A stretch of 64,000 bases of DNA, taken from Candidatus Micrarchaeota archaeon. Lineage in GTDB: Archaea > Micrarchaeota > Micrarchaeia > Anstonellales > Bilamarchaeaceae. Of the stretch, positions 5,106 through 63,990 are shown in pieces. The stretch covers positions 6,476 to 70,475 of the forward strand of contig CAZPPT010000004.1 in the NCBI GenBank assembly GCA_964588555.1. Reading direction: 5' to 3'. The notes below the pieces were generated by a model. That model worked only from the letters and a program-made list of their open reading frames with translations, had not been told where the DNA came from and searched no databases. The translations under genes and the position numbers were made by a program. The first letter of the stretch is position 1. Each line of letters opens with the position of its first letter.

Positions 5106-5111
5106 CGCGCC

Positions 5112-6080
5112 CTAAAATTGGGGCAGGTAGTTCACCTTGTAGTTTTTGATGAGCGTGTAGTACTCATAGCGCTTTATGCCGTTTGGAAATTTCCTTTCAA
5201 ACTCATCCATGATTTCTATGAACTGGCTGAAGCTTTCTACCTCGAGATCGAATTCAAAGTCAGATGTGACGAGCGTTTTTTCAGTATAGATGACGTTTGG
5301 ATGCGCAAGAATCGTATTCATGATCTCTTTTTTTTGCTTCGTATCTGCAAACCAGAGATCGACCTTGTAATAGAGGTAGCCAAGCTTCTTGTAATTAAGT
5401 ATTGTTCGAAAGCCGACGATGACGCGCTTTTTTATCAACCGCTTTAGCCGTGCACGTGCGGTGACAACTGATGTGTTTGTTTTATGCGCAAGATCGACAA
5501 GCGAGGTGCGCGCGTTCTTTGAAAGAAGGTTTAGGATTTTGAAATCGAGCCTGTCAAGCGCCTCCGGTTTTCCTTCGTGGAGAACCTTAAAACCCGTTTT
5601 TTCAACGTCCTTTTCGTTTCTCGTAAGGTACCCACGCGTAAATTCCGTATACTCTGTCTTTACTGCAAGGTGGCACTTCAAAAAATGGACTCCAAAATTT
5701 TCAGTAAACTCCTCCCAGAAATTCTGGTACTCCCAAACTGTTTTTACCCAGATGCTGAAACTGAAGTCGTAGTGGCCGGTAATGCGGTAAAATATCCAGA
5801 TATTTTTGTGGTTTTTGAGATACTCGATGAGCGCTTCCTTTTGCTGATGCGGCATGTCTGTAACGCGTACATAAAAGCGAAACGAGATAAACCCGAGCTT
5901 TGTGTAATCAATGACGGTATAAAATCCCTCAATAATCCAGTTCTCAATTAATTTTTCCATCCGATATTTTACCGTATCCTTGTTTGAACGGGTTTTCTTT
6001 GCAATTGCTCCGTAACCCTGTCGCGAATCACAGTCAAGCTCGTGAAGAATTTTCCTGTCAAGATGGTCTAATTCTATCAT
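5112..6080 (-). CDS. tandem (duplicated) Lrp/AsnC-family regulator
   Basis: Two HTH plus RAM units in one 322-aa chain: LDRKILHELDCDSRQGYGAIAKKTRSNKDTVKYRMEKL and LDFKILNLLSKNARTSLVDLAHKTNTSVVTARARLKRL. Confidence 0.8.
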   Translation of the reverse strand: MIELDHLDRKILHELDCDSRQGYGAIAKKTRSNKDTVKYRMEKLIENWIIEGFYTVIDYTKLGFISFRFYVRVTDMPHQQKEALIEYLKNHKNIWIFYRITGHYDFSFSIWVKTVWEYQNFWEEFTENFGVHFLKCHLAVKTEYTEFTRGYLTRNEKDVEKTGFKVLHEGKPEALDRLDFKILNLLSKNARTSLVDLAHKTNTSVVTARARLKRLIKKRVIVGFRTILNYKKLGYLYYKVDLWFADTKQKKEIMNTILAHPNVIYTEKTLVTSDFEFDLEVESFSQFIEIMDEFERKFPNGIKRYEYYTLIKNYKVNYLPQF

Positions 6081-6204: not shown

Positions 6205-6783
6205 ATGAAAATACTACGATTGTCGCATGGATATCAACAGAGAACCATGGGGGAACGGCACACAAGGCCATTGTCGCGCGATAGCCTTCGCTTGTTTGGT
6301 GCACATCAACTTACAGAAGAACACATCGAGCCGGGAAGGCTTCTTGCACCTGCAAAAACAGTAATGGAAATAAGCCGTGACGCCATCCTTGTACGGCTTG
6401 TTGGCAATACGGTCGCGTTTGCGTATCCTGATTCGACGGTGACCCGTGTCCTATTCCATGACCGTTATGAAGGAAGCCACCTGCTTATTGAAGAAGGCGG
6501 CAAGCAGTCCCTTCGGAAAGGTCGGAAACACCGCCTTGGCAAAGTGGAGCTTGCATCTTTAAATGACGGTGCGGAAGTATTTTTTGGCTTTATCCTTGCA
6601 AGTGGTTTTTTCGTCAGTGAGACACGCGGTGCGTCCCCCTTGGTTGGAGGGGAAAACTACTGTTTTTCTTTTGAAATTGAGGCAACGCCAAATGGCACGA
6701 AAGAAGAACGGTTCCCGGCGGACTCGGTGCGCGTTGAGGTCTTTTCAACGCTTCCGCCGGTCTTGATCCTTGAGGCAAAATAA
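6205..6783 (+). CDS. hypothetical protein (ORFan operon gene 1)
   Basis: 192-aa ORF with a GGTGAT RBS and no motif I recognise. Confidence 0.6.
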   Translation: MKILRLSHGYQQRTMGERHTRPLSRDSLRLFGAHQLTEEHIEPGRLLAPAKTVMEISRDAILVRLVGNTVAFAYPDSTVTRVLFHDRYEGSHLLIEEGGKQSLRKGRKHRLGKVELASLNDGAEVFFGFILASGFFVSETRGASPLVGGENYCFSFEIEATPNGTKEERFPADSVRVEVFSTLPPVLILEAK

Positions 6784-6798
6784 AGATAAGGTGTGCAT

Positions 6799-7407
6799 AT
6801 GAATAGCGTTTTACGATTTCATATTTTTACTGCAATGAGGCATGTAAGGAAAAATGAGCTTAAAAAAGCAATTCCCTATTTTGTGGCTATTGACCGTCTT
6901 GCCACAACGCCTGAGGAACGATTATTATTAACGGGGTGCATGGGCATTTCCTATTTTAGGGCAAGAAATGCACGTGTCGCAAAAAATCTTTTTTCTGAAA
7001 TTCTTTATTCTACAAATCCGCTGGGCAAGCGCGTTGCCCGAAGGTATATGGAAAAATTGTCCGATCTTGAGTTTGATCCACTTACTTTAATGAAAAAGAA
7101 TGAAGACGGGCTTGCATTTCGGTCATTTCGGCCAAGTGAAGATTTTAGGCACTACCTATACGTGCTTCTTGAAAATACTGTGTGCCCCACTACTGGAAAA
7201 CGTGGTATGCCCCAATCAGATTTGGCACGGGAACTCGGCTTAAGTAAGACCCATCTTTCAGACATGTTGCGAAAACGTGGCCTTAAGAATATTCTTGCAC
7301 GGAATCTTGCCAGAATAGTTGAGGTATTGCACGAGCATGGCATTTCAAAAGAACAAACTGATCGTCTTATTGAATTGGCCACAGAGTGTGCAGGGAAGGA
7401 GGCGTAA
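6799..7407 (+). CDS. helical-repeat protein with C-terminal XRE-type HTH (ORFan operon gene 2)
   Basis: ATG at 6799 follows AAGGTG. C-terminal MPQSDLARELGLSKTHLSDMLRKRG matches the XRE HTH pattern. Confidence 0.65.
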   Translation: MNSVLRFHIFTAMRHVRKNELKKAIPYFVAIDRLATTPEERLLLTGCMGISYFRARNARVAKNLFSEILYSTNPLGKRVARRYMEKLSDLEFDPLTLMKKNEDGLAFRSFRPSEDFRHYLYVLLENTVCPTTGKRGMPQSDLARELGLSKTHLSDMLRKRGLKNILARNLARIVEVLHEHGISKEQTDRLIELATECAGKEA

Positions 7408-14349: not shown

Positions 14350-14377
14350 AAAAAAGCGCCTCCGCCGGGAATGTCAG

Positions 14378-14475
14378 TTTCGCCCTTGCGCTTTTAGGAA
14401 AAGCGCCCAAAACTGGGATTTCAAGGGCGAGCCCCAAAAACAAATTTGACCTGTGCAAATCCTTTTGGTTTTGGG
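14378..14475 (-). repeat. conserved intron module, copy 1 (tRNA-Asp T-loop intron)
   Basis: Plus strand reads tttcgccc ... gggcgagccccaaaaac-loop-ggttttggg. See the finding on the shared module. Confidence 0.6.
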
Positions 14476-14554
14476 ATAATGCGTAGACCTTTGCCATTTG
14501 GTTTTCTAATTCAAAGGGCTTCGCCTTCGAACCCGGGTCGCGAGAGCTCCGTTA

Positions 14555-14631
14555 TTTCGCCCTTTTTAACGCTTCTATATTTCTTGCGTCAAAAAGGTCG
14601 AGCCCCAAAACATGGAAAACCAGTTTTTGGG
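14555..14631 (-). repeat. conserved intron module, copy 2 (tRNA-Asp anticodon intron)
   Basis: Plus strand reads tttcgccc ... ggtcgagccccaaaac-atggaaaacca-gtttttggg. Confidence 0.55.
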
Positions 14632-14749
14632 CTGCCTTTTTTCTAAAAAGGCAGAATGACAGTCTCGTATGCTAACCAATGTGCATTAATCTAAGTAGGA
14701 TTAATACTACACTACAGAGGCTAAAGAGATATATCATGTGTAAAAGAGT

Positions 14750-41802: not shown

Positions 41803-41926
41803 AGCCCCCGGAGGGAATATCAGTTTCCTGTTTCCGGTCTTTAGTTTGACTGCTAGAAACAAGACACGTTTGAACCCCCGGCCTATCGCTTACGAAGCGA
41901 TCGCTCTACCGCTGAGCTACAGAGGC
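41803..41926 (-). tRNA. tRNA-Thr (CGU) with 52-nt T-loop intron
   Basis: GCCTCTG TA GCTC AGCGGTA GAGC G ATCGC TTCGTAA GCGAT AGGCC GGGGG TTCAAA|[52 nt, 41817..41868]|T CCCTC CGGGGGC T. The intron folds as GTGTCTTGTTTCT/GGAAACAGGAAAC. Confidence 0.8.
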
Positions 41927-41968: not shown

Positions 41969-43159
41969 TTACTTATTTACGTCAGCATAGTTGACGACTT
42001 GGTTTCTGCCATGGTCTTTTGCATATTGAAGCGCCTTATTTGCAAGTTCCTTGACTTGCGTTCCAAGGTTGTTCCCTTCAGCGCTTATTGATACGCTGTC
42101 AACTATCCCTGCACTTACGGTGACGGAAAATGCATCATGGTCGTTATACATTATTTGATGGCTTTCAACCTTTGCCCTGAGCCGGTCTGCGATAACGGTA
42201 GCCTGCCCTGCATCTACGCCAAATAGTATAAGGATGAACTCTTCACCCCCCCAGCGGTACAACTTATCAGGATAGGATATCGACGTCGTTACCGCTTCAT
42301 CCCATCCTTGTCCTTCTGGCGGCCTGAGGCTGTTTGGTGGCGGAGGCGGGTCACTGAGGCGCCTTCCCGGCCGATTGGATTCACGTGAAACGCTTTTTCG
42401 TGCATTTGCGGATATCACGTGTGCAACCTCTGAAAGGGCATAATCTGCTATGAAATAACCGTGTTTCGTATTGACTTTTTTAAAATGGTCTATGTCAAAT
42501 ATGACTACGGAGAATGGGGCCTTTGTCCGCACGAGGTCCTTAAGGTCTGCCTCAAATTCTCTTTTTCCAGGCAAGCTCGTGGCATAATCAAAATTGTTCC
42601 GCATATAAAATACGACTGATGACGCGATTGCCGCTCCGACGGACATCGACCGCTTCGGAATACGCGTAATCGAGTCCCTGAGGCTAAGGTCCGTACCTTC
42701 CAGTGCAAGCAGGCCAATAATCTTTGCATTTGGCTTGTTCGACTCTGTTAAGGCTATGAGTATGTGGTCTTTTCCATCAGATGCATGCATCCGTATTTTT
42801 CGTGCAGCAGTATCAAACGGTGTCAAGTTAAATGCATATTGGCTTGTCCCATGGATAAATAACGGGCTTCTGTGCCTTATTGAATGGAGTGCCAAGTCAT
42901 GCTCAAATCTATTCTCAGGTCTGTCAGACGGGTATGTAGTATATGGATACAGCCTATCGTTTTCATACGTATATACTGATACGGAAGTTGCGCCTGCAAA
43001 CATTTCTTTAGCGAGTGCCAGTAATTCCGAGAATGTATGGACATCATTTACAAGCCTGCTGAATTCCCGATGGGCGGCGAGTTCCGGGTTTCCCAGTAGC
43101 CTATTCAAGAACTGTTTTCGTGGCATGACTGGCAGTGGCCCTACAGTTAGTCGTTTCAT
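41969..43159 (-). CDS. GGDEF-domain protein (diguanylate cyclase-like) with N-terminal sensor-like domain
   Basis: VVIFDIDHFKKVNTKHG, RWGGEEFILIL, VTVSAGI and KALQYAKDHGRNQVV occur in GGDEF order. A ~40-aa Pro-rich insert sits before the GGEEF loop. Confidence 0.8.
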   Translation of the reverse strand: MKRLTVGPLPVMPRKQFLNRLLGNPELAAHREFSRLVNDVHTFSELLALAKEMFAGATSVSVYTYENDRLYPYTTYPSDRPENRFEHDLALHSIRHRSPLFIHGTSQYAFNLTPFDTAARKIRMHASDGKDHILIALTESNKPNAKIIGLLALEGTDLSLRDSITRIPKRSMSVGAAIASSVVFYMRNNFDYATSLPGKREFEADLKDLVRTKAPFSVVIFDIDHFKKVNTKHGYFIADYALSEVAHVISANARKSVSRESNRPGRRLSDPPPPPNSLRPPEGQGWDEAVTTSISYPDKLYRWGGEEFILILFGVDAGQATVIADRLRAKVESHQIMYNDHDAFSVTVSAGIVDSVSISAEGNNLGTQVKELANKALQYAKDHGRNQVVNYADVNK

Positions 43160-43218: not shown

Positions 43219-43594
43219 CGCTGAGGACAGGATCTGTTCCTTTCGCCCTTTTTAGATTCATACGCCCTTCCTGTGTAAAAAAGGGCGAGCCCCAAAAACA
43301 GAAGAATCTGTTATTGGTGATCTAAACGGACGAAGTTCAACCGAAAATCTACGGTACACCACCGCAGGGTTTTTGGGATGAAGCGTAGACCTTTTGCCAT
43401 AAGAATGGCACAAGTCAAAAGGGCTCCGCATTGAACCTGTAATCCACGAGGGATCGGTTTACTCGTAACCTGGTTCGAGATTCGCCCCTTGGCCTAACCC
43501 TTCTAAGGGGGTGAGGCCTTAGGGGGCTCCAAGAGACACCTAAGTGCCCCCTAGGCTTCAAGACCGACGCACTACCAGGTTATGCGACCTCAGC
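43219..43594 (-). tRNA. tRNA-Ser (UGA) with two large introns
   Basis: GCTGAGG TC GCAT AACCTGGTA GTGC G TCGGT CTTGAA|[97 nt, 43460..43556]|A ACCGA TCCCTCGTGGATT ACAGG TTCAA(T)|[~197 nt, ~43233..43430]|(A)T CCTGT CCTCAGC G. All four stems are perfect or have one G-U. Long variable arm, G73, oligo-T after. Confidence 0.8.
43241..43377 (-). repeat. conserved intron module, copy 3 (tRNA-Ser T-loop intron)
   Basis: Plus strand reads tttcgccc ... gggcgagccccaaaaac-(69 nt)-gtttttggg. Confidence 0.6.
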
Positions 43595-43619
43595 ATCAAA
43601 CTTTTAGGAAAAGTTTGAT
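43595..43619. repeat. perfect 11-bp inverted repeat abutting the tRNA-Ser 5' end
   Basis: atcaaactttt-agg-aaaagtttgat. It begins at the nucleotide next to tRNA position 1. Confidence 0.6.
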
Positions 43620-55373: not shown

Positions 55374-58300
55374 TTAAACAGAAGAGGCATGAGTCGTTTC
55401 CGCCGGTTTCTCCCCATTCTCCTTATGCACAACAGCAAAGCTCGCAACCTTTTCCTGTTCGTTCAATTTGATGACCCGAACTCCTTGCGTGTTTCTGCCT
55501 ATTACTGAAATGTCGCTTACCGGCATCCGTATTGCCTGGCCCCCGGTAGTCATGAGGATAACCTCATCATCGTCGCTTACGCACCGTGTTGCGACAATGG
55601 CGCCATTTCTCCCTTCGGTTTTCATGTTGATGATGCCGCTTCCGCCCCGGCCTTGGATCCGGTATTCATCAATATGGGTTCGTTTCCCATACCCGTTTTC
55701 AGTGATCGTAAGCACGGTCTGCTTGTTGCAGATTGCAAGGCTCACCACATAATCAGTAGGGTCCATCCGTATCCCAATCACCCCTTGCCCAGTCCTGCCT
55801 ATTTCACGCGCATCCTCTTCGTGGAATCGGATCGATTGCCCGTTTCTGGTTGCAATGAGGATCGTCTCCTTGCCGTTTGTCTTGCGGACATCGACAAGTC
55901 CGTCCCCTTCCTTAAGCGTAATTGCAATGATGCCTGTCTTTCGGGGGTTATTGAAGTTTGCAAGGCTGGTCCGCTTGATGGTGCCGTTCTTGGTCATCAT
56001 GACAAGGTACTCGTCCTCGTTGAATGCCGCCACGCTGACCCATGAGCTGATTTTTTCATCCTTTAGCTCAAGAAGGTTTACGATTGTCTTGCCCGTCGCA
56101 TACCTGCCTGCTTCTGGCACGCGGTATGCCTTAAGCCAGAACGCGCGCCCCTTGTCGGTGAAAAAGAGGATGTAATTGTGGTTTTTGGTAACAATAAGGT
56201 CATTTACCACGTCTTCCTCCTTTGTCTCAGTGCCGATCACGCCCTTGCCGCCCCGGCGTTGCGAGCGGTATTCGTCGGTCCTGATCCGCTTGATATAACC
56301 GCGTTGCGTAATGACCACCACCACCTCGTCGTTTGGTATCAGTTCCTCAATGGTGATGTCTTCGCCACCTTCTGAAATGGCAGTTCGCCTGCCGTCCCCG
56401 TACCGCGCCTTAATTTCAGTAAGTTCTTCCTTTATGATCGCAAGTATCTTCAGTACGTCTGAAAGCACGTCCTTAAGCCAGGTAATCTGCTTTTGGAGTT
56501 CGCCGTGCTCGTCCTGGATCTTCTTTTGTTCAAGTGATATAAGCCGCTGGAGCTTCATGTCAAGGATTGCCTGCGCCTGTTTTTCACTAAGGGAGTACGA
56601 ATTCATGAGCCCTCCCTTGGCCTCTTCAACGTCCTTGCTTGCCTTAAGGAATGCAATAATCGGTTCTATCTGTTCAAGTGCCTTAAGGAGCCCCTCGAGT
56701 ATGTGCGCACGCTCCTCTGCGATACGAAGCTCGTATGTACAGCGCCTCTGCACAATCTCCTTTCTAAAATCTATGAACTGGCTTATGAGCTGGTGGAGCC
56801 CAAGTATTTTGGGTTCATTATTTACAAGTACGAGGTTGATAATCCCAAACGTGCTTTCAAGCGGCGTATGCGCATACATCTGGTTGAGCACTACCGCGGG
56901 CGTCGCGTCCCGTGAGAGGTCGATTACGACGTTGATCCCTTCGCGGTCGCTTCGGTCATGTACGCCCTTTATGCCGACAATTCGCTTGTCGCGTGCCGCA
57001 TTTGCGATCGCCTCGATGATGGAAGTTTTTGTTACCTGGTAGGGTATTTCACGGATTACAATTACGTGTTTTGTTTCGTCAATTTCGCATCTGCCCCGCA
57101 TCTTAATAATGCCCCGTCCCGTCTTGTATGCTGAGTAAATCCCTGCCTTTCCGACTATTTCGCCGCCGGTCGGGAAGTCCGGGCCAGTGACGATTTGAAG
57201 GAGCTGTTCTTCGTTTGCGCCGTCGATCACTGCGATTGCGCCGTCCACTATCTCAGTGAGATTATGGGGCGGGATATTTGTTGCCATGCCGACCGCTATG
57301 CCTGCGCTTCCGTTGATAAGCAGGTTTGGGACCTTGCTTGGGAGCACGGTCGGTTCCTTGAGCGTGCCGTCAAAGTTCGGGACAAAGTCAACGGTTTCCT
57401 TGTCAAGGTCATTAAGCATCTCTTCTGTGAGGTGTGCCATCCTCACTTCCGTATACCTCATTGCTGCCGGGCTATCTCCGTCTATCGAACCAAAATTTCC
57501 TTGACCATCTACAAGCATATAACGTAATGAAAACGATTGTGCCATTCTCGCAAGAGAGTCATACACAGCCTGATCGCCGTGTGGGTGGAACTTACCAAGG
57601 CAATTATGCGAAATCATCCCGTTAGCGATAAATTCGTGTGATTCTTCAACTTGTATGTCATATGTTTTTTCTGCTGGTCTGTTCTCTATTTTTTCAACTC
57701 TTAAGAAGTAAATTTCATTTTTAATGACCTGATTAACAAATGGTGCAAAAGCCGATTCTATTCTATTTAGTTTTTCTTGTATCCCCCACTCAACGAGCTG
57801 TGTTCTGCCAAGGTATTTTTCTTTTAAATCCTTAGCGTATCTAATTTTCGTCCCGTTTGAGTACTTTATCCCCATCCTGAATTTTTGGCCTGCCTTGTCG
57901 CTGTACCAGCCTGCTCCCACATGGTTCTTACTTAATTCCTCAAACAGTATGTTCCCGGCGTGCGGGATTTCATCAAACAAAGACGTTTTAATGATGTGGT
58001 TTGTAAAGTCACTTCGGCTATTTTTTCTTTCATCTGACAGCAATAGTTGTTGCAGCAATACCTGAGCAAATCTTCCTCCAATTTCCAAGCTATGGAACGG
58101 ATAATTGCCTTTAACAAGTTGCCCATTGACAGAACTCTTTTTTTCACTGTAATCAGTATACTTTTTACCAAAAATACCTAAATGTTGTAGTACTATTTGG
58201 AGTTGATCGATAAGTTTTTCTGATACGCTCCCATAATGGATGACATTCCTTTCCTTATGTATGCTGCCATCGCCATCGATAAGCCCGCTTATAAAAGAAA

Positions 58301-59207
58301 AGATAACTGATTTTGGCGATCTGAATATCTGCGGAGGTATTATTTTTGTAAACGCAACGGCATTTTGAAGGCTAAAAGCAGAAACTAAAAAATCATTTAT
58401 CTCGACCCTATTTACTCGTACTGTAAACATTCTATTAATAAGAATTTGACCCGATGCAGTCTCTATTTCATATTCTCTCTCTTCTATTGTCGGTTCGTAT
58501 TGAAATTCATTTTGCAATATCGCTGCAAGTCTTTGTGCCACTTCATACGAGTTGGTACTTACTGCACACCTAAACCCCTTTCCATGGTTATATCCTTTTT
58601 CTATCCAGCCGTCCGAAAGTAATTGGCCTAATAAGTAACCAATGTTCTGATTTAGGTGAATTTTCCTCCCGTATAATTCTCCCATGTACACTTCTTTTTC
58701 AATAACTGGATAAATTGCCCGGCTTACAATATAGTCCCCAACCGTGATATCTTTTGCCTCTTTCCATTCAAATTCAAGGTTTTTGTTTAGTATTTTCAAT
58801 TTCTGCGATTGCGTCACTGTATTCGACGTCCCATTTTTAAGTGTTATTTTAAGAAGTTCCCGCTCCGGCATTTCATATAACTCAGTAACCTTATTTTCCC
58901 CATTTTTAGTAAAAACGACATCACCACATTCTATTTCTTGTATTGGGATGAGCCCGCGTTTTGTTGCCACGAGCGTGTCTTTTACAAAGCATTCACCGAC
59001 GATACGGGCACTCTTTTTATACGCCTTATTATAATGGTTGCCGAGTTCCTTCATTGAGTATAAAATCCGTCGATGTACCGGCTTTAATCCGTCCCGAAGG
59101 TCTGGTATTGCGCGGCCCACAATGACGCTCATTGCATAATCCAAGTAGCTTTCCTTAAGGTCCTTTTCAATGGGCTGCTCAATAATCGTCTCAGTCATAA
59201 ACGCCAC
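55374..59207 (-). CDS. gyrA: DNA gyrase subunit A containing an intein
   Basis: Extein blocks [31 protein letters not shown] and C-terminal beta-pinwheel repeats. 1277 aa in total, about 814 aa without the intein. Confidence 0.9.
57603..58991 (-). mobile_element. GyrA intein (463 aa) with LAGLIDADG homing-endonuclease domain
   Basis: Inserted in ARIVGE|CFVKDTLV...[10 protein letters not shown]|[19 protein letters not shown] motifs [10 protein letters not shown] and [10 protein letters not shown]. Terminal HN with a +1 Cys. Confidence 0.85.
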
Positions 59208-60792: not shown

Positions 60793-63700
60793 ATGGCTGA
60801 CCAGAGTAGTGAATATACTGCAAAAGACATCCAGGTTCTTGAAGGATTGGAAGGCGTGCGTAAACGCCCGGCAATGTATATCGGTGACATCGGCAAAAGA
60901 GGGCTTCATCATTTAGTGTATGAAATTTCTGACAATTCGGTGGACGAGGCACTCGCCGGACACTGCAAGAATATCGAGATTACGCTTCATGCCGACGGCT
61001 CTGTTTTGGTAAAGGATGATGGGCGCGGGATCCCAATAGACATCCACCCTAAAACCGGCAAGAGCGCGCTTGAGGTTGTAAGCGGAAGCCTACACGCCGG
61101 CGGCAAGTTTGAAAAGAAGGCGTACAAGGTAAGCGGCGGTTTGCACGGCGTCGGTATGAGCGTGGTGAACGCATTAAGCCACTGGATGCACATTGAGGTG
61201 CACCGCGACGGCAAGATCCACACGCTTCACTACGACCATGGAAAAACACAGGAAGGCGTACGCGTTACCGGGGAGACTGCGTACCGCGGGACGATTGTCC
61301 GCTTTAAGCCCGACGCAACCATTTTCCAGACTGTCGAGTTTGATTTTGAGTACCTGAAAGAACGGTTTATGGAGCTTGCGTTCCTTAACAAGGGGCTGCG
61401 TATCACGTTGTCTGACGAGCGTACGCAAAAAAGCGAGGAATTTTACTATGAGGGTGGCATTGTCCAGTTTGTCGAATACCTCAACAAGGCACGGCCCCGT
61501 CTTCACCCGCCATTTTATATAAACAAGTCAATCGACTCACTTGAGATCGAATTTGCGCTCCAGTATACGGAAAGTTTCAACGACATGCTGTATTCATTTG
61601 TAAATGACATTAAGACCGTTGAGGGCGGCACCCACGTTATTGGGTTTAAGACCGCGCTTACGCGTGCAGTAAATGAGTATGCAAAGGGAAACAAGCTCGT
61701 AAAGGACGACCATAAGATTGTTGGTGATGATGCCCTCGAAGGCATAACTGCAGTCATCAGCATCAAGATCCCCGAGCCCCAGTTTGAGGGGCAGACCAAG
61801 ACAAAGCTTGGAAACAACGAGGTTAAGGGGGTTGTCGACAGCATCGTCTATGAGGCGCTTCAAACGTACCTTGAGGAAAACCCCGATTCTGCAAAGAAGA
61901 TCGCAGCAAAAATAGTCCAGAGTATGGAGGCACGCGAGGCTGCACAAAAGGCGCGCGACCTGATCAGGCGAAAGAACGTCTTTGAGTCAAGCATCCTGCC
62001 CGGAAAACTTGCTGACTGTGAGGAGGAAGACCCGACAAAGGCGGAGTTGTTTTTGGTGGAAGGGGACAGCGCCGGTGGATGTTTTTCGGGCGACACAAAA
62101 GTAGCGCTTGCTGACGGAAGAAATGTAACTTTTAAAGACCTCATAGAAGAAGATGCAATGGGAAAACGCAATTTTTGCTATACTATTAAGAAAGACGGAT
62201 CAATCGGTATAGAAGAAATCAAGCATCCTCGCATTACTAAAAGAAATGTTGAAGTTATTACAGTTATTTTGGATACTGGTGAAAAAATAGAATGCACTCC
62301 GGATCATTTGTTTATGCTTCGTGACGGCACCTATCGTAAGGCGCGAGATTTAAAACCATCGGATTCACTTATGCCATTGCAACGAAAGCTTTCTGAATTA
62401 GGCAATTCAATAACTATTGAAGGTTATGAAATGGTATACGATCATAAATCTCTTCGCTGGATTTTTACCCATCTTTTAGCAGATAACTGGAATATGGAAA
62501 ACGCAGTATATCCTGCATTGCCAAATGCACATCGTCATCACATCGACTTTAACAAGTTGAATAATAACCCAACGAACATAAGGCGATTAAGTCCCGAAGA
62601 ACATTTAGCATATCATCGCGGACTTCTTGAGAAAACACTTCACACTCCTGAAATTAAAGAAAAATGCAGGAAACTAAAACAGACAAAAGAATTTAGGGAA
62701 ATGATGAGTAAGAGAATGAAAGAGCCTTCAACAAGAAATATTCTTAGTAAAAATGCAAGGAAGCAGTGGGAAGATCAAGCATATAAGGAATACATGATAA
62801 AGAAATTCATTGATTTTTACTATGGCAATAAAGAATACCGTGAAAAATCTCTAAAAATTCTTGCTGAAAGTCAACGTACTTATTGGTCAAGCGAAGAAAA
62901 TGTTAAAAAACAATCTGAACGGATACAAAAATTCTTTAGCGAACACCCTGAGAGAAAACAAGTTTTATCAGTTGCCGCAAAAGAACAATGGCAGAACGAA
63001 CAGCTACTTCTTTGGAGAAGTGAAAGAACTAAAGAACAGTGGACCCCTGAATTTAGAAAAAAGCGAATGAAAGCTTACAATAAGGCGTACTATGACGCAA
63101 CAATACGAGCTTTACGAGACATCTACGATAAAACAAATATGATAGATATTGATGAATATAATCAGTTAAGGAAAAAAACTAAGAACAAAAATTTACTCCT
63201 TTTCGAGACATTTGCCAAACGATTTTTTGACAACGATACTGATAGTGCTAAACAGGCAGTTATGAATTATAATCACAAGGTCTTTGCTGTTATTAATTTA
63301 CATAAACAAATGGACGTATACGATATCGAAGTGCCTAATACACATAATTTTGCGCTTGCGAATGGCGTTTTTGTCCACAATAGTTCGAAGATGGCACGCG
63401 ACCGCCGATTCCAGGCAATACTCCCCCTCCGCGGCAAGATCCTCAATGTCGAAAAGGCCCCCATACACAAGACCCTCGCAAGCGAGGGCATAAAGAACGT
63501 CGTGCTTGCGATCGGTGCCGGATTCAAAGATGAATTTGACTTAAACAAGACGCGCTACCATAAAATTATCATCACGTGCGATGCTGATGTTGACGGTGCG
63601 CACATTAGGACTCTTTTACTTACGCTTTTTTACCGTTACTTCAAGCCCGTTGTCGAAAAGGGTTATATTTATGTTGCACAGCCCCCGCTGTATCGGGTCA

Positions 63701-63990
63701 AGAAAGGAAAGAACGAGCGCTACGTCTATAACGAAACTGAACTTGATGCAGCACTCAAAGAATTTGGCGAGGGGTGTGAAATCCAACGCTACAAGGGTTT
63801 GGGTGAAATGAACCCTGACCAATTGTGGCATACTACGATGGATCCCGCAACTCGTACGCTTAAGAAAGTGACTATCGAGGATGCGATGAAGGCTGATGAG
63901 CTGTTTAGCATTTTGATGGGCGAAGAAGTCGAGCCACGGCGTGAATTTATCGAAAGCTATGCAAAGGAAGTAAAGAATCTGGATATCTGA
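60793..63990 (+). CDS. gyrB: DNA gyrase subunit B containing an intein
   Basis: GHKL ATPase blocks VYEISDNSVDEA, DDGRGIP, GGLHGVG. Toprim LVEGDSAGG|...|S..RDRRFQAILPLRGKILNVEKA and CDADVDGAHI. About 631 aa without the intein. Confidence 0.9.
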   Translation: MADQSSEYTAKDIQVLEGLEGVRKRPAMYIGDIGKRGLHHLVYEISDNSVDEALAGHCKNIEITLHADGSVLVKDDGRGIPIDIHPKTGKSALEVVSGSLHAGGKFEKKAYKVSGGLHGVGMSVVNALSHWMHIEVHRDGKIHTLHYDHGKTQEGVRVTGETAYRGTIVRFKPDATIFQTVEFDFEYLKERFMELAFLNKGLRITLSDERTQKSEEFYYEGGIVQFVEYLNKARPRLHPPFYINKSIDSLEIEFALQYTESFNDMLYSFVNDIKTVEGGTHVIGFKTALTRAVNEYAKGNKLVKDDHKIVGDDALEGITAVISIKIPEPQFEGQTKTKLGNNEVKGVVDSIVYEALQTYLEENPDSAKKIAAKIVQSMEAREAAQKARDLIRRKNVFESSILPGKLADCEEEDPTKAELFLVEGDSAGGCFSGDTKVALADGRNVTFKDLIEEDAMGKRNFCYTIKKDGSIGIEEIKHPRITKRNVEVITVILDTGEKIECTPDHLFMLRDGTYRKARDLKPSDSLMPLQRKLSELGNSITIEGYEMVYDHKSLRWIFTHLLADNWNMENAVYPALPNAHRHHIDFNKLNNNPTNIRRLSPEEHLAYHRGLLEKTLHTPEIKEKCRKLKQTKEFREMMSKRMKEPSTRNILSKNARKQWEDQAYKEYMIKKFIDFYYGNKEYREKSLKILAESQRTYWSSEENVKKQSERIQKFFSEHPERKQVLSVAAKEQWQNEQLLLWRSERTKEQWTPEFRKKRMKAYNKAYYDATIRALRDIYDKTNMIDIDEYNQLRKKTKNKNLLLFETFAKRFFDNDTDSAKQAVMNYNHKVFAVINLHKQMDVYDIEVPNTHNFALANGVFVHNSSKMARDRRFQAILPLRGKILNVEKAPIHKTLASEGIKNVVLAIGAGFKDEFDLNKTRYHKIIITCDADVDGAHIRTLLLTLFYRYFKPVVEKGYIYVAQPPLYRVKKGKNERYVYNETELDAALKEFGEGCEIQRYKGLGEMNPDQLWHTTMDPATRTLKKVTIEDAMKADELFSILMGEEVEPRREFIESYAKEVKNLDI
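62080..63381 (+). mobile_element. GyrB intein (434 aa) with HNH-type endonuclease region
   Basis: GDSAGG|CFSGDTKVALADG...TPDH (block B)...HRHHIDFNKLNNNPTNIRRLSPEEHLAYH (HNH)...repeated KEQW-type helices...LANGVFVHN|S. Confidence 0.85.

Follow-up and report, generated by a model that had tools for sequence, protein, structure and literature searches.

A conserved three-hairpin cassette in large tRNA introns of Micrarchaeota as the likely core of a recombining family of bulge-helix-bulge introns

A stretch of 64,000 nucleotides (nt) from a Candidatus Micrarchaeota archaeon, analysed here over its whole length and referred to as the window, contains three large tRNA introns, two in a tRNA-Asp(GUC) gene and one in a tRNA-Ser(UGA) gene, that are built around a common module of hairpins. 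We consider it probable that a family of large bulge-helix-bulge (BHB) introns in the tRNA genes of Micrarchaeota has this module as its conserved core, that the family spreads, recombines and decays, and that the hairpins of the module fold a long insertion for splicing. Near-identical copies occur at non-orthologous sites, the orthologous introns are decayed or absent, and different copies share different segments; taken together, these observations speak for an element that is gained, exchanged and lost, and not for a gene held by long-term selection at one place. The archaeal origin of the window is evident from the proteins that it encodes, namely FttA, a short archaeal triosephosphate isomerase (TIM), primase and intein-bearing GyrA and GyrB, and the closest relatives of the TIM, at no more than 69% identity, carry the name Ca. 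Micrarchaeota.

Both host genes lie on the minus strand, and the introns are described in tRNA sense. The tRNA-Asp(GUC) gene (14357..14721) consists of four exons (14707-14721, 14657-14678, 14526-14546 and 14357-14370) separated by three introns, and ARAGORN recognized the exons, joined in silico, as a 72-nt tRNA-Asp(gtc). The intron in the D-loop (14679..14706; 28 nt, after position 15) lacks the module, the anticodon intron at position 37/38 (14547..14656; 110 nt) holds the full cassette, and the T-loop intron (14371..14525; 155 nt) holds the module at position 59/60, plus or minus 1 nt; an alternative junction at 58/59 likewise yields a valid tRNA. The tRNA-Ser(UGA) gene (43219..43594) has three exons (43557-43594, 43431-43459 and 43219-43233) that give an 82-nt tRNA-Ser(tga) by the same procedure. 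Its T-loop intron at 58/59 (43234..43430; 197 nt) carries the module, and its anticodon intron (43460..43556; 97 nt) is without it and is orthologous to introns of 38-54 nt in relatives.

The BHB geometry was read from the six nucleotides that end the exon and the six that end the intron, with the cut placed after the second bulge nucleotide. All seven introns checked, five from the window and two from the genome JAGVWJ01 described below, have a 4-nt central helix and 3-nt bulges, with 4/4 pairs in six cases and 3/4 in one. In the window, the central helix is GUGU/GCAC for the Asp D-loop intron (4/4 pairs; bulges AG|U and AU|U), CUGU/ACGG for the Asp anticodon intron (4/4), GUUC/GAAC for the Ser T-loop intron (4/4) and CUUG/CGAG for the Ser anticodon intron (4/4); the helix UUCG/UGAC of the Asp T-loop intron has 3/4 pairs and represents a relaxed motif. 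Spliced sequences were accepted by ARAGORN for Asp(gtc), Ser(tga) and Thr(cgt) in the window and for Met(cat), Arg(tct) and Ser(tga) at related loci. Removal of BHB introns involves two enzymes, the archaeal splicing endonuclease, which cuts them out, and an RNA ligase, which joins the exons; a Pfam scan found no splicing endonuclease gene among the 38 open reading frames of the window. A self-splicing origin failed its test, as Rfam gave no group I or group II intron match and the introns measure 110-197 nt, against the more than 200 nt expected of that kind, and have BHB junctions. Judged from their sequence, the introns of the window are in kind archaeal BHB tRNA introns of the endonuclease type, of unusual length. 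In their unspliced form, tRNA-Asp and tRNA-Ser were missed by both ARAGORN and Rfam, which detected in the window only a tRNA-Pro and part of a tRNA-Thr. Since large introns hide tRNA genes from standard finders, the tRNA complements of DPANN archaea may be under-called.

The core common to the three introns comprises a hairpin P2 (CCCAAAA(A)C / GUUUU(U)GGG), a GC linker, the base of a hairpin P3 (UCGMCC.../...GGGCGA) and a following AA. In the full cassette three hairpins stand in a row: P1 (NNNCCUUUUU-loop-AAAAAGGNNN), P2 (CCCAAAAAC/GUUUUGGG) and, behind P2 and the GC linker, P3 (UCGMCC(U)n...(A)nGGGCGA). Downstream of P3 come AA, 0-2 nt and then the four intron nucleotides of the central BHB helix, which pair with the exon. 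The Asp anticodon intron is composed of P1 (14632-14654), P2 (14604-14631), the GC linker, P3 (14557-14601) and AA plus UAACGGAG. It begins with 2 nt, followed by P1 as CUGCCUUUUU-AGA-AAAAAGGCAG and by P2 with a loop of 11 nt between its two strands; P3 (UCGACCUUUUU...AAAAAGGGCGA) has an apical stem-loop of its own, and the intron ends with AA, UA, the ACGG that pairs with CUGU of the anticodon loop in the BHB helix, and AG before the 3' splice site. Both T-loop introns contain P2 and P3, and in them P1 is replaced by a different long hairpin, GCGnAGCCCUUU(U)GA...AUGGCAAA(A)GGUCUACGC. In the Asp T-loop intron this 5' domain (14481-14524) is followed by P2 (14433-14475) and by P3 (14380-14430), which forms a three-way junction whose apex includes the hairpin GCGCUUUUCCUAAAAGCGC. 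In the Ser T-loop intron the 5' domain (43383-43429) can be aligned with that of the Asp T-loop intron and precedes P2 (43291-43377), with its 69-nt loop, and P3 (43243-43288).

A preliminary description of the window, made from its letters, had reported three copies of the module in minus-strand sense at 14378-14475, 14555-14631 and 43241-43377, which we confirm, and the span 14371-14656 that it gave for the tRNA-Asp locus coincides exactly at one boundary with the 3' end of the T-loop intron and at the other with the 5' end of the anticodon intron. The two additional blocks that it had noticed in the T-loop introns are as described there. Hairpin loops wholly different in sequence and length were also found, of 11, 26 and 69 nt, the 26-nt loop having been estimated at about 25. 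The claim that the A and T runs of the P2 stem co-vary in length is wrong, as the copies have 4A/5T (Asp T-loop), 5A/4T (Asp anticodon) and 5A/5T (Ser), and both JAGVWJ01 copies have 5A/4T. The proposed pairing of TCGCCC with GGGCGA is perfect in the two T-loop copies; in the anticodon copy, TCGACC introduces an A.G mismatch.

In all five canonical copies, three in the window and two in JAGVWJ01, GGGCGAAA ends 6-8 nt upstream of the 3' splice site. At this distance P3 occupies the place of the intron-side helix (h') next to the BHB, and P1 and P2 are consequently closed hairpins between the 5' splice site and P3. Minimum-energy folds give P1, P2 and P3 in 4/5 canonical copies (z -3.2 to -6.1); the Asp anticodon intron folds into P1, P2 and P3 with z = -5.9 and the Asp T-loop intron into P2 and P3 with z = -3.2. 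Three copies possess P1, and between them its outer stem has changed in a compensatory manner (CUGCC/GGCAG, CUUACC/GGUAAG and CCAGCC/GGCUAG). When pairs were counted over the five canonical copies, 14/18 core pairs were invariant and one showed a compensatory change. Since the core helices do not vary, the covariation test for which the preliminary description had called gives no verdict on P2 or on the base of P3. Alignments made with MAFFT mis-registered the stems when full loops or the diverged copy at locus L021 (see below) were included, and the stems of that copy were compared through its fold and the covariance-model alignment.

The distribution of the cassette was examined with sequence patterns and with a covariance model of the core. 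A 17-nt core pattern matched three sites in the 64 kb, all of them the known copies, and three or more matches were obtained in 0/100 shuffled sequences. The covariance model scored the Asp anticodon copy highest (93.5 bits), followed by the Ser T-loop (72.5) and Asp T-loop (55.4) copies, and it detected no fourth copy in the window. Applied to 188 kb plus 28 kb of Micrarchaeota DNA (about 216 kb), the model found nothing beyond the known copies and the degenerate orthologue at L021; a weak intergenic match at L029 was judged to be due to chance. (L-numbers denote Micrarchaeota loci that were fetched for comparison.) A strict 23-nt gapped pattern, with which diverged copies would be missed, was scanned over one genome per species in 185,579 species. 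It matched one other organism, Ca. Micrarchaeota RIFCSPLOWO2_12_FULL_37_11 (JAGVWJ01), at two sites, and a single match in Thermus was rejected as chance. With the same pattern, a scan of JGI metagenomes returned only contigs of the JAGVWJ01 organism itself. Three pattern scans of viral contigs gave no match or only GC-rich chance matches. In Rfam 15, only tRNA reached the gathering score for the window and the two loci, and weak, unrelated matches were all that appeared at E<=10; no description of the cassette was found in the literature. In the DNA searched, the core is present only in tRNA introns and always in tRNA sense. A contig break next to tRNA-Ser in Logan was not used as a sign of repetition, because shared tRNA exons could also cause it.

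In JAGVWJ01 the cassette forms the anticodon intron (37/38) of tRNA-Arg(UCU) and the D-loop intron (15/16) of tRNA-Met(CAU). Both introns have BHB helices with 4/4 pairs, and their exons splice to valid tRNAs. The five host sites comprise, in the window, Asp at 37/38 and 59/60 and Ser at 58/59 and, in JAGVWJ01, Arg at 37/38 and Met at 15/16. Both genomes are only distantly related to each other, with FEN1 proteins that are 66% identical and GC contents of 46% (window) and 37% (JAGVWJ01), and nevertheless their cores agree in 15-17 of 16-17 nt plus 8/8 nt. Similarity outside the core is distributed unevenly. The Asp anticodon intron shares 21/26 positions of P1 and 10/11 of the P2 loop with the Met D-loop intron of JAGVWJ01, and with the Arg intron of that genome it shares 26/33 positions of the P3 interior, including the apex. 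Compared at the sequence level, the copies are mosaic, different segments being common to different partners. What one would look for in a family of transposed introns is found here, that is, a near-identical intron in genes for Asp, Ser, Arg and Met and at positions 15/16, 37/38 and 58/59-59/60.

Orthologous tRNA genes were reached through their neighbours, tRNA-Met loci through the PP2C gene that adjoins tRNA-Met in JAGVWJ01 and tRNA-Ser loci through TIM. For tRNA-Asp this approach gave access to no orthologue, as a homologue search with the protein next to the gene returned only that protein itself. GCA_023247345 (L018), the closest relative of JAGVWJ01 (FEN1 84%), has a tRNA-Met that lacks both the D-loop and the T-loop intron. 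GCA_023247545 (L019; FEN1 74%) has a D-loop intron at the same site of tRNA-Met, with a sequence that is barely alignable, and a T-loop intron consisting of only one P1-like and one P2-like hairpin. The same genome (L021) retains the order GGDEF - tRNA-Ser - TIM, and in it the T-loop site used in the window is occupied by an intron of about 206 nt whose module is degenerate (CGUUUUUGGAUCAAUCCUUUUUU...UAAAAAGGCUUGAA); this copy scores 26 bits with the covariance model, and its fold keeps P2 and P3 despite several substitutions per strand. At L023, where tRNA-Ser stands beside TIM and the GGDEF side lies off the contig, the T-loop intron measures only 24 nt (AGCCAU-loop-AUGGCUGAA), and at L025, with conserved GGDEF-tRNA-TIM synteny, it is absent. 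From these sequences, the absence of introns at the orthologous sites in L018 (Met) and L025 (Ser) points to gain or loss after divergence, in either direction.

In the tRNA-Ser neighbourhood, two further features were noticed. The window encodes a GGDEF (diguanylate cyclase) domain protein at 41969-43159 on the minus strand, in a DPANN archaeon, and the order GGDEF - tRNA-Ser - TIM is kept in L021 and L025. A duplicate of the initial 8-20 nt of tRNA-Ser lies a short way upstream of the gene at L021 (about 7130-7260), L023 (about 420-560, there together with the 5' flank) and L025 (about 1590-1700), all in minus sense; in L023 and L025 a minihelix-like hairpin, closing with acceptor-stem sequence, lies between the duplicates. 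This duplication could be what is left of an integration, of an excision or of an additional intron.

On the reading that we favour, self-closing hairpins would draw together both splice sites of an intron of 110-200 nt, with P3 taking the place of the intron-side helix (h'), so that the cassette would serve as a scaffold for folding and would thereby keep a large insertion open to splicing. The hairpins are most likely chiefly such a scaffold. Copies would be gained in new tRNA genes and at new positions, in the D-loop (15/16), the anticodon loop (37/38) and the T-loop (58-60), would swap segments, and would be lost or decay at orthologous sites. By analogy, this would amount to the tRNA intron transposition that has been put forward for Thermoproteales, with the difference that the cassettes are large and structured. 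The preliminary description had offered a functional excised RNA or a mobile intron lineage; comparative data support the mobile lineage, and the functional RNA gained no positive support.

Several points weigh against this reading. It is built on five canonical copies from two genomes, and splicing, stability and circularisation are all inferred from sequence. The minimum-energy fold of the Ser copy lacks P2 and engages the 5' strand of P3 in an alternative pairing. P2 and the base of P3 are fixed in sequence and the loops vary freely; as a pure folding scaffold would tolerate compensatory changes, something sequence-specific may act on the core, be it a protein site, a mobility signal or a very recent spread. 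Terminal inverted repeats and target-site duplications were not seen by eye at the intron ends, and an insertion mechanism is not known. Finally, runs of five or six T, which look like archaeal terminators and would be awkward in an innocuous intron, occur in tRNA sense within the module introns. They are found in all three of these introns (14547-14656, 14371-14525 and 43234-43430) and are as long as the T runs behind tRNA-Asp, tRNA-Ser and tRNA-Pro, which are presumed terminators. They may either be non-terminating in the host or lower the yield of full-length pre-tRNA. The fixed sequence of P2 and the P3 base may in turn reflect a very recent spread, a recognition site for spread or a function in trans of the excised, probably circular RNA.

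A stronger form of the favoured reading, in which the BHB intron is actively mobile between tRNA genes and between Micrarchaeota genomes and the invariant P2-GC-P3 core is its recognition element, is one that we advance only tentatively and regard as unlikely. Movement might then start from the excised RNA, which is probably circular and would undergo reverse splicing or ligation before being copied into DNA, or it might take place at the DNA level, guided by the invariant P2-GC-P3 core.

The best-surviving alternative takes the excised, probably circularised intron itself to be a functional RNA; a protein or a second RNA would bind the invariant P2-GC-P3 junction in a sequence-specific manner, and the tRNA genes would be mere hosts. 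Over the five copies from the two distant genomes the 33-nt core is 94-100% identical while the adjoining loops differ wholly, the orientation is constantly that of the tRNA, and the folds are strongly stable; moreover, circularisation of tRNA introns after excision is established in archaea, and C/D guide RNAs are found among such introns (PMC12558985; PMC4090602). However, a needed RNA would not be expected to decay as it has at L021, where GGAUCAAUCC stands for GGGGCUCGCCC and GGCUUGAA for GGGCGAAA, or to be missing together with its intron in close relatives. The strict pattern was moreover encountered in just 1/185,579 species genomes and that organism's own metagenome contigs, no Rfam family matched even at the relaxed threshold, and the module copies have no C box, a D-box-like CUGA being present in one of them only. 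We regard a functional excised RNA as doubtful on this balance.

Another possibility is that a small palindromic repeat, comparable to miniature inverted-repeat transposable elements (MITEs) or repetitive extragenic palindromic (REP) sequences, enters or expands within existing short introns at the DNA level; the introns themselves would be immobile, and the repeat would survive in them because anything inside a BHB intron is spliced out. The common tRNA-Ser T-loop site of the window, L021 and L023, with sizes from 24 to about 206 nt, agrees with such expansion, as does a 40-nt type of T-loop intron in L002 that recurs in L018 at about 150 nt, with about 110 nt of extra hairpins in mid-intron. 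The P2 loops look like nested insertions, and related hairpins with U and A tracts are found outside introns too, in the leader of tRNA-Ser. Yet three of the introns, those in the anticodon loops of Asp and Arg and in the D-loop of Met, consist of little else than the cassette, and L018 has no intron at the Met D-loop site. The single orientation and the fixed distance to the 3' splice site would be hard to obtain by random DNA insertion without later selection, inspection by eye revealed neither terminal inverted repeats nor target duplications, and the covariance model found no intergenic copies in the DNA searched. Expansion of pre-existing short introns by the cassette fits the 24-to-206-nt series of Ser T-loop introns and the 40-nt type and fails for the tRNA-Met D-loop, a site without an intron in the closest relative; as a general account, a DNA-level repeat seems quite unlikely to us.

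That the introns are ancient and vertically inherited, their similarity reflecting purifying selection for spliceability and no movement between genes, is highly improbable: the tRNA-Ser T-loop intron does occupy one site in three genomes and the tRNA-Met D-loop intron one site in L002 and L019, but canonical copies sit in different tRNAs and at different positions, neither strict match of JAGVWJ01 lies in tRNA-Asp or tRNA-Ser, introns are absent in L018 and L025, and orthologous introns are barely alignable at a distance over which non-orthologous canonical copies are near-identical.

Other interpretations were rejected. For an intron-encoded box C/D small RNA, no C box (RUGAUGA), even in relaxed form, was present in any intron of the window, and CUGA was confined to the 3' ends of two T-loop introns, those of Asp and Thr; the preliminary description was right to set this case aside for these introns. 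Kink-turn (K-turn), H/ACA, hammerhead and GNRA readings of GGGCGAAA were dropped by eye because the partner motifs are absent. A terminator-plus-promoter arrangement, a split tRNA in the making, was considered on account of the T runs and AAAUAUAG; the TATA-like block exists in 2/5 copies and is too near the 3' strand of P3. A MITE or an element derived from an insertion sequence was discarded, since inspection showed no inverted repeats or duplications and copies outside tRNA introns were not found; no formal transposon search was made.

Further introns and hairpins were observed around these genes. The window also contains a tRNA-Thr(CGU) gene (41803..41926, minus strand), with a partial Rfam tRNA match and a spliced form that is a valid tRNA-Thr, which has a 52-nt T-loop intron (41817-41868) without the module. 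The 3' end of this intron, GAAACUGAUAU, resembles that of the Asp T-loop intron (GAAACUGACAU) and that of a T-loop intron at L008, a likeness that probably reflects pairing with the T-loop exon. A second intron family is represented by the T-loop introns of tRNA-Arg in JAGVWJ01 (L001, 4252-4440) and of tRNA-Ser in GCA_023247545 (L021, about 6830-7110, minus strand), with GCCAUA(G/U)CCCCUUUCU...AGAAAGGGGCUGAGUCAUUCACCCCCAAAGAA; by its sequence, the 5' domain of the window T-loop introns looks like a relative of this family. The 40-nt type mentioned above is a third one, found in the T-loop of tRNA-Met at L002 (about 5110-5150, minus strand) as AGCnUUGUCCUGUnGGACA...AAUUUGACnGCAAnGCnGUC; its longer form at L018 (about 5720-5870) is in another tRNA gene. 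The sequences of this third type suggest that introns grow by internal insertion of hairpins. A scan for hairpins detected AUCAAACUUUUCCUAAAAGUUUGAU (43595..43619, minus strand), which directly abuts the 5' end of tRNA-Ser and has the CUUUU-CCU-AAAAG motif that is also seen at the P3 apex of the Asp T-loop intron. The form NNNCUUUU-CCU-AAAAGNNN recurs at places associated with tRNAs, in the window at 43595-43619 and 14388-14406, within an intron at L019 (3692-3714) and at a contig end at L017 (10734-10750).

Two observations concern other genes. The intein of GyrA (gene at 55374-59207, minus strand) has LAGLIDADG and Hint domains and that of GyrB (gene at 60793-63990, plus strand) an intein-splicing domain; GyrB is intein-free in the relatives at L008 and L023. 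Between SRP54 and a tRNA gene, a conserved and structured-looking non-coding block was noticed at L017 (9330-9590), L018 (5365-5570) and L019 (3330-3550), which scores below every Rfam gathering threshold and is possibly the signal recognition particle RNA.

To our knowledge, intron transposition in archaea has been inferred in Thermoproteales, with no known mechanism or recognisable element. The route by which archaeal tRNA genes acquire introns at many positions is the open question on which the cassette bears. With its invariant core, its three tRNA positions, its presence in two distant DPANN genomes and its polymorphism in relatives, it constitutes a long and recognisable marker for tracing intron gain, loss and recombination, and it provides a defined substrate for studies of splicing, circularisation and possible mobility. 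If active mobility were true, this would be the first tractable example of archaeal tRNA intron gain.

Among known systems, bacterial REP- and MITE-like repeats resemble the cassette as short multi-copy hairpin units with variable loops; they differ from it in that the cassette was found only in tRNA introns, keeps a constant orientation and a fixed register to the splice site, and on inspection has no terminal inverted repeats or target duplications. The box C/D guide encoded in the tRNA-Trp intron of Euryarchaeota is likewise a structured, conserved RNA inside a BHB tRNA intron, whereas the module has no C box, no C'/D' boxes and no K-turn-forming GA pairs on both strands. Introns that look, by sequence, like intron-encoded methylation guides, and in this are unlike the module introns, are the anticodon introns of tRNA-Met(CAU) at L002 (about 5170-5235, minus strand), L018 (about 6740-6795) and L019 (about 7270-7335), in which box C/D-like motifs (gUGAUGA ... 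AUGAUA ... CUGA) were observed.

For Thermoproteales, intron transposition was proposed by Fujishima et al. (2010), as summarised in PMC4090602. According to that summary, very similar introns occur there in tRNAs for different amino acids and at canonical as well as non-canonical positions, which implies gain after species divergence and parallels the present case. The hosts belong to TACK there and to DPANN here, and what sets the window introns apart from the families so summarised is the occurrence of near-identical copies in two genomes whose proteins differ in one residue out of three, together with mosaic exchange. The transposed introns of Thermoproteales are short, in contrast to the long structured cassette described here.

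Also close to the present case is Micrarchaeum (ARMAN-2), whose epsilon2 endonuclease is of broad specificity and in which 56% of the tRNA genes are disrupted and introns occur at 59/60 (PMC3239211; PMC5829648). It belongs to the same phylum, and it shares with the window several introns per tRNA gene, sites at 37/38 and 59/60, and relaxed hBH-like BHB motifs with a 4-bp helix and 3-nt bulges (PMC3239211). By this analogy, the module introns would fit the known splicing biology of Micrarchaeum. In contrast, the introns used in its splicing assays measured 13 and 25 nt (PMC3239211) versus 110-197 nt here, and those of the window are built from a repeated, sequence-conserved cassette of three hairpins.

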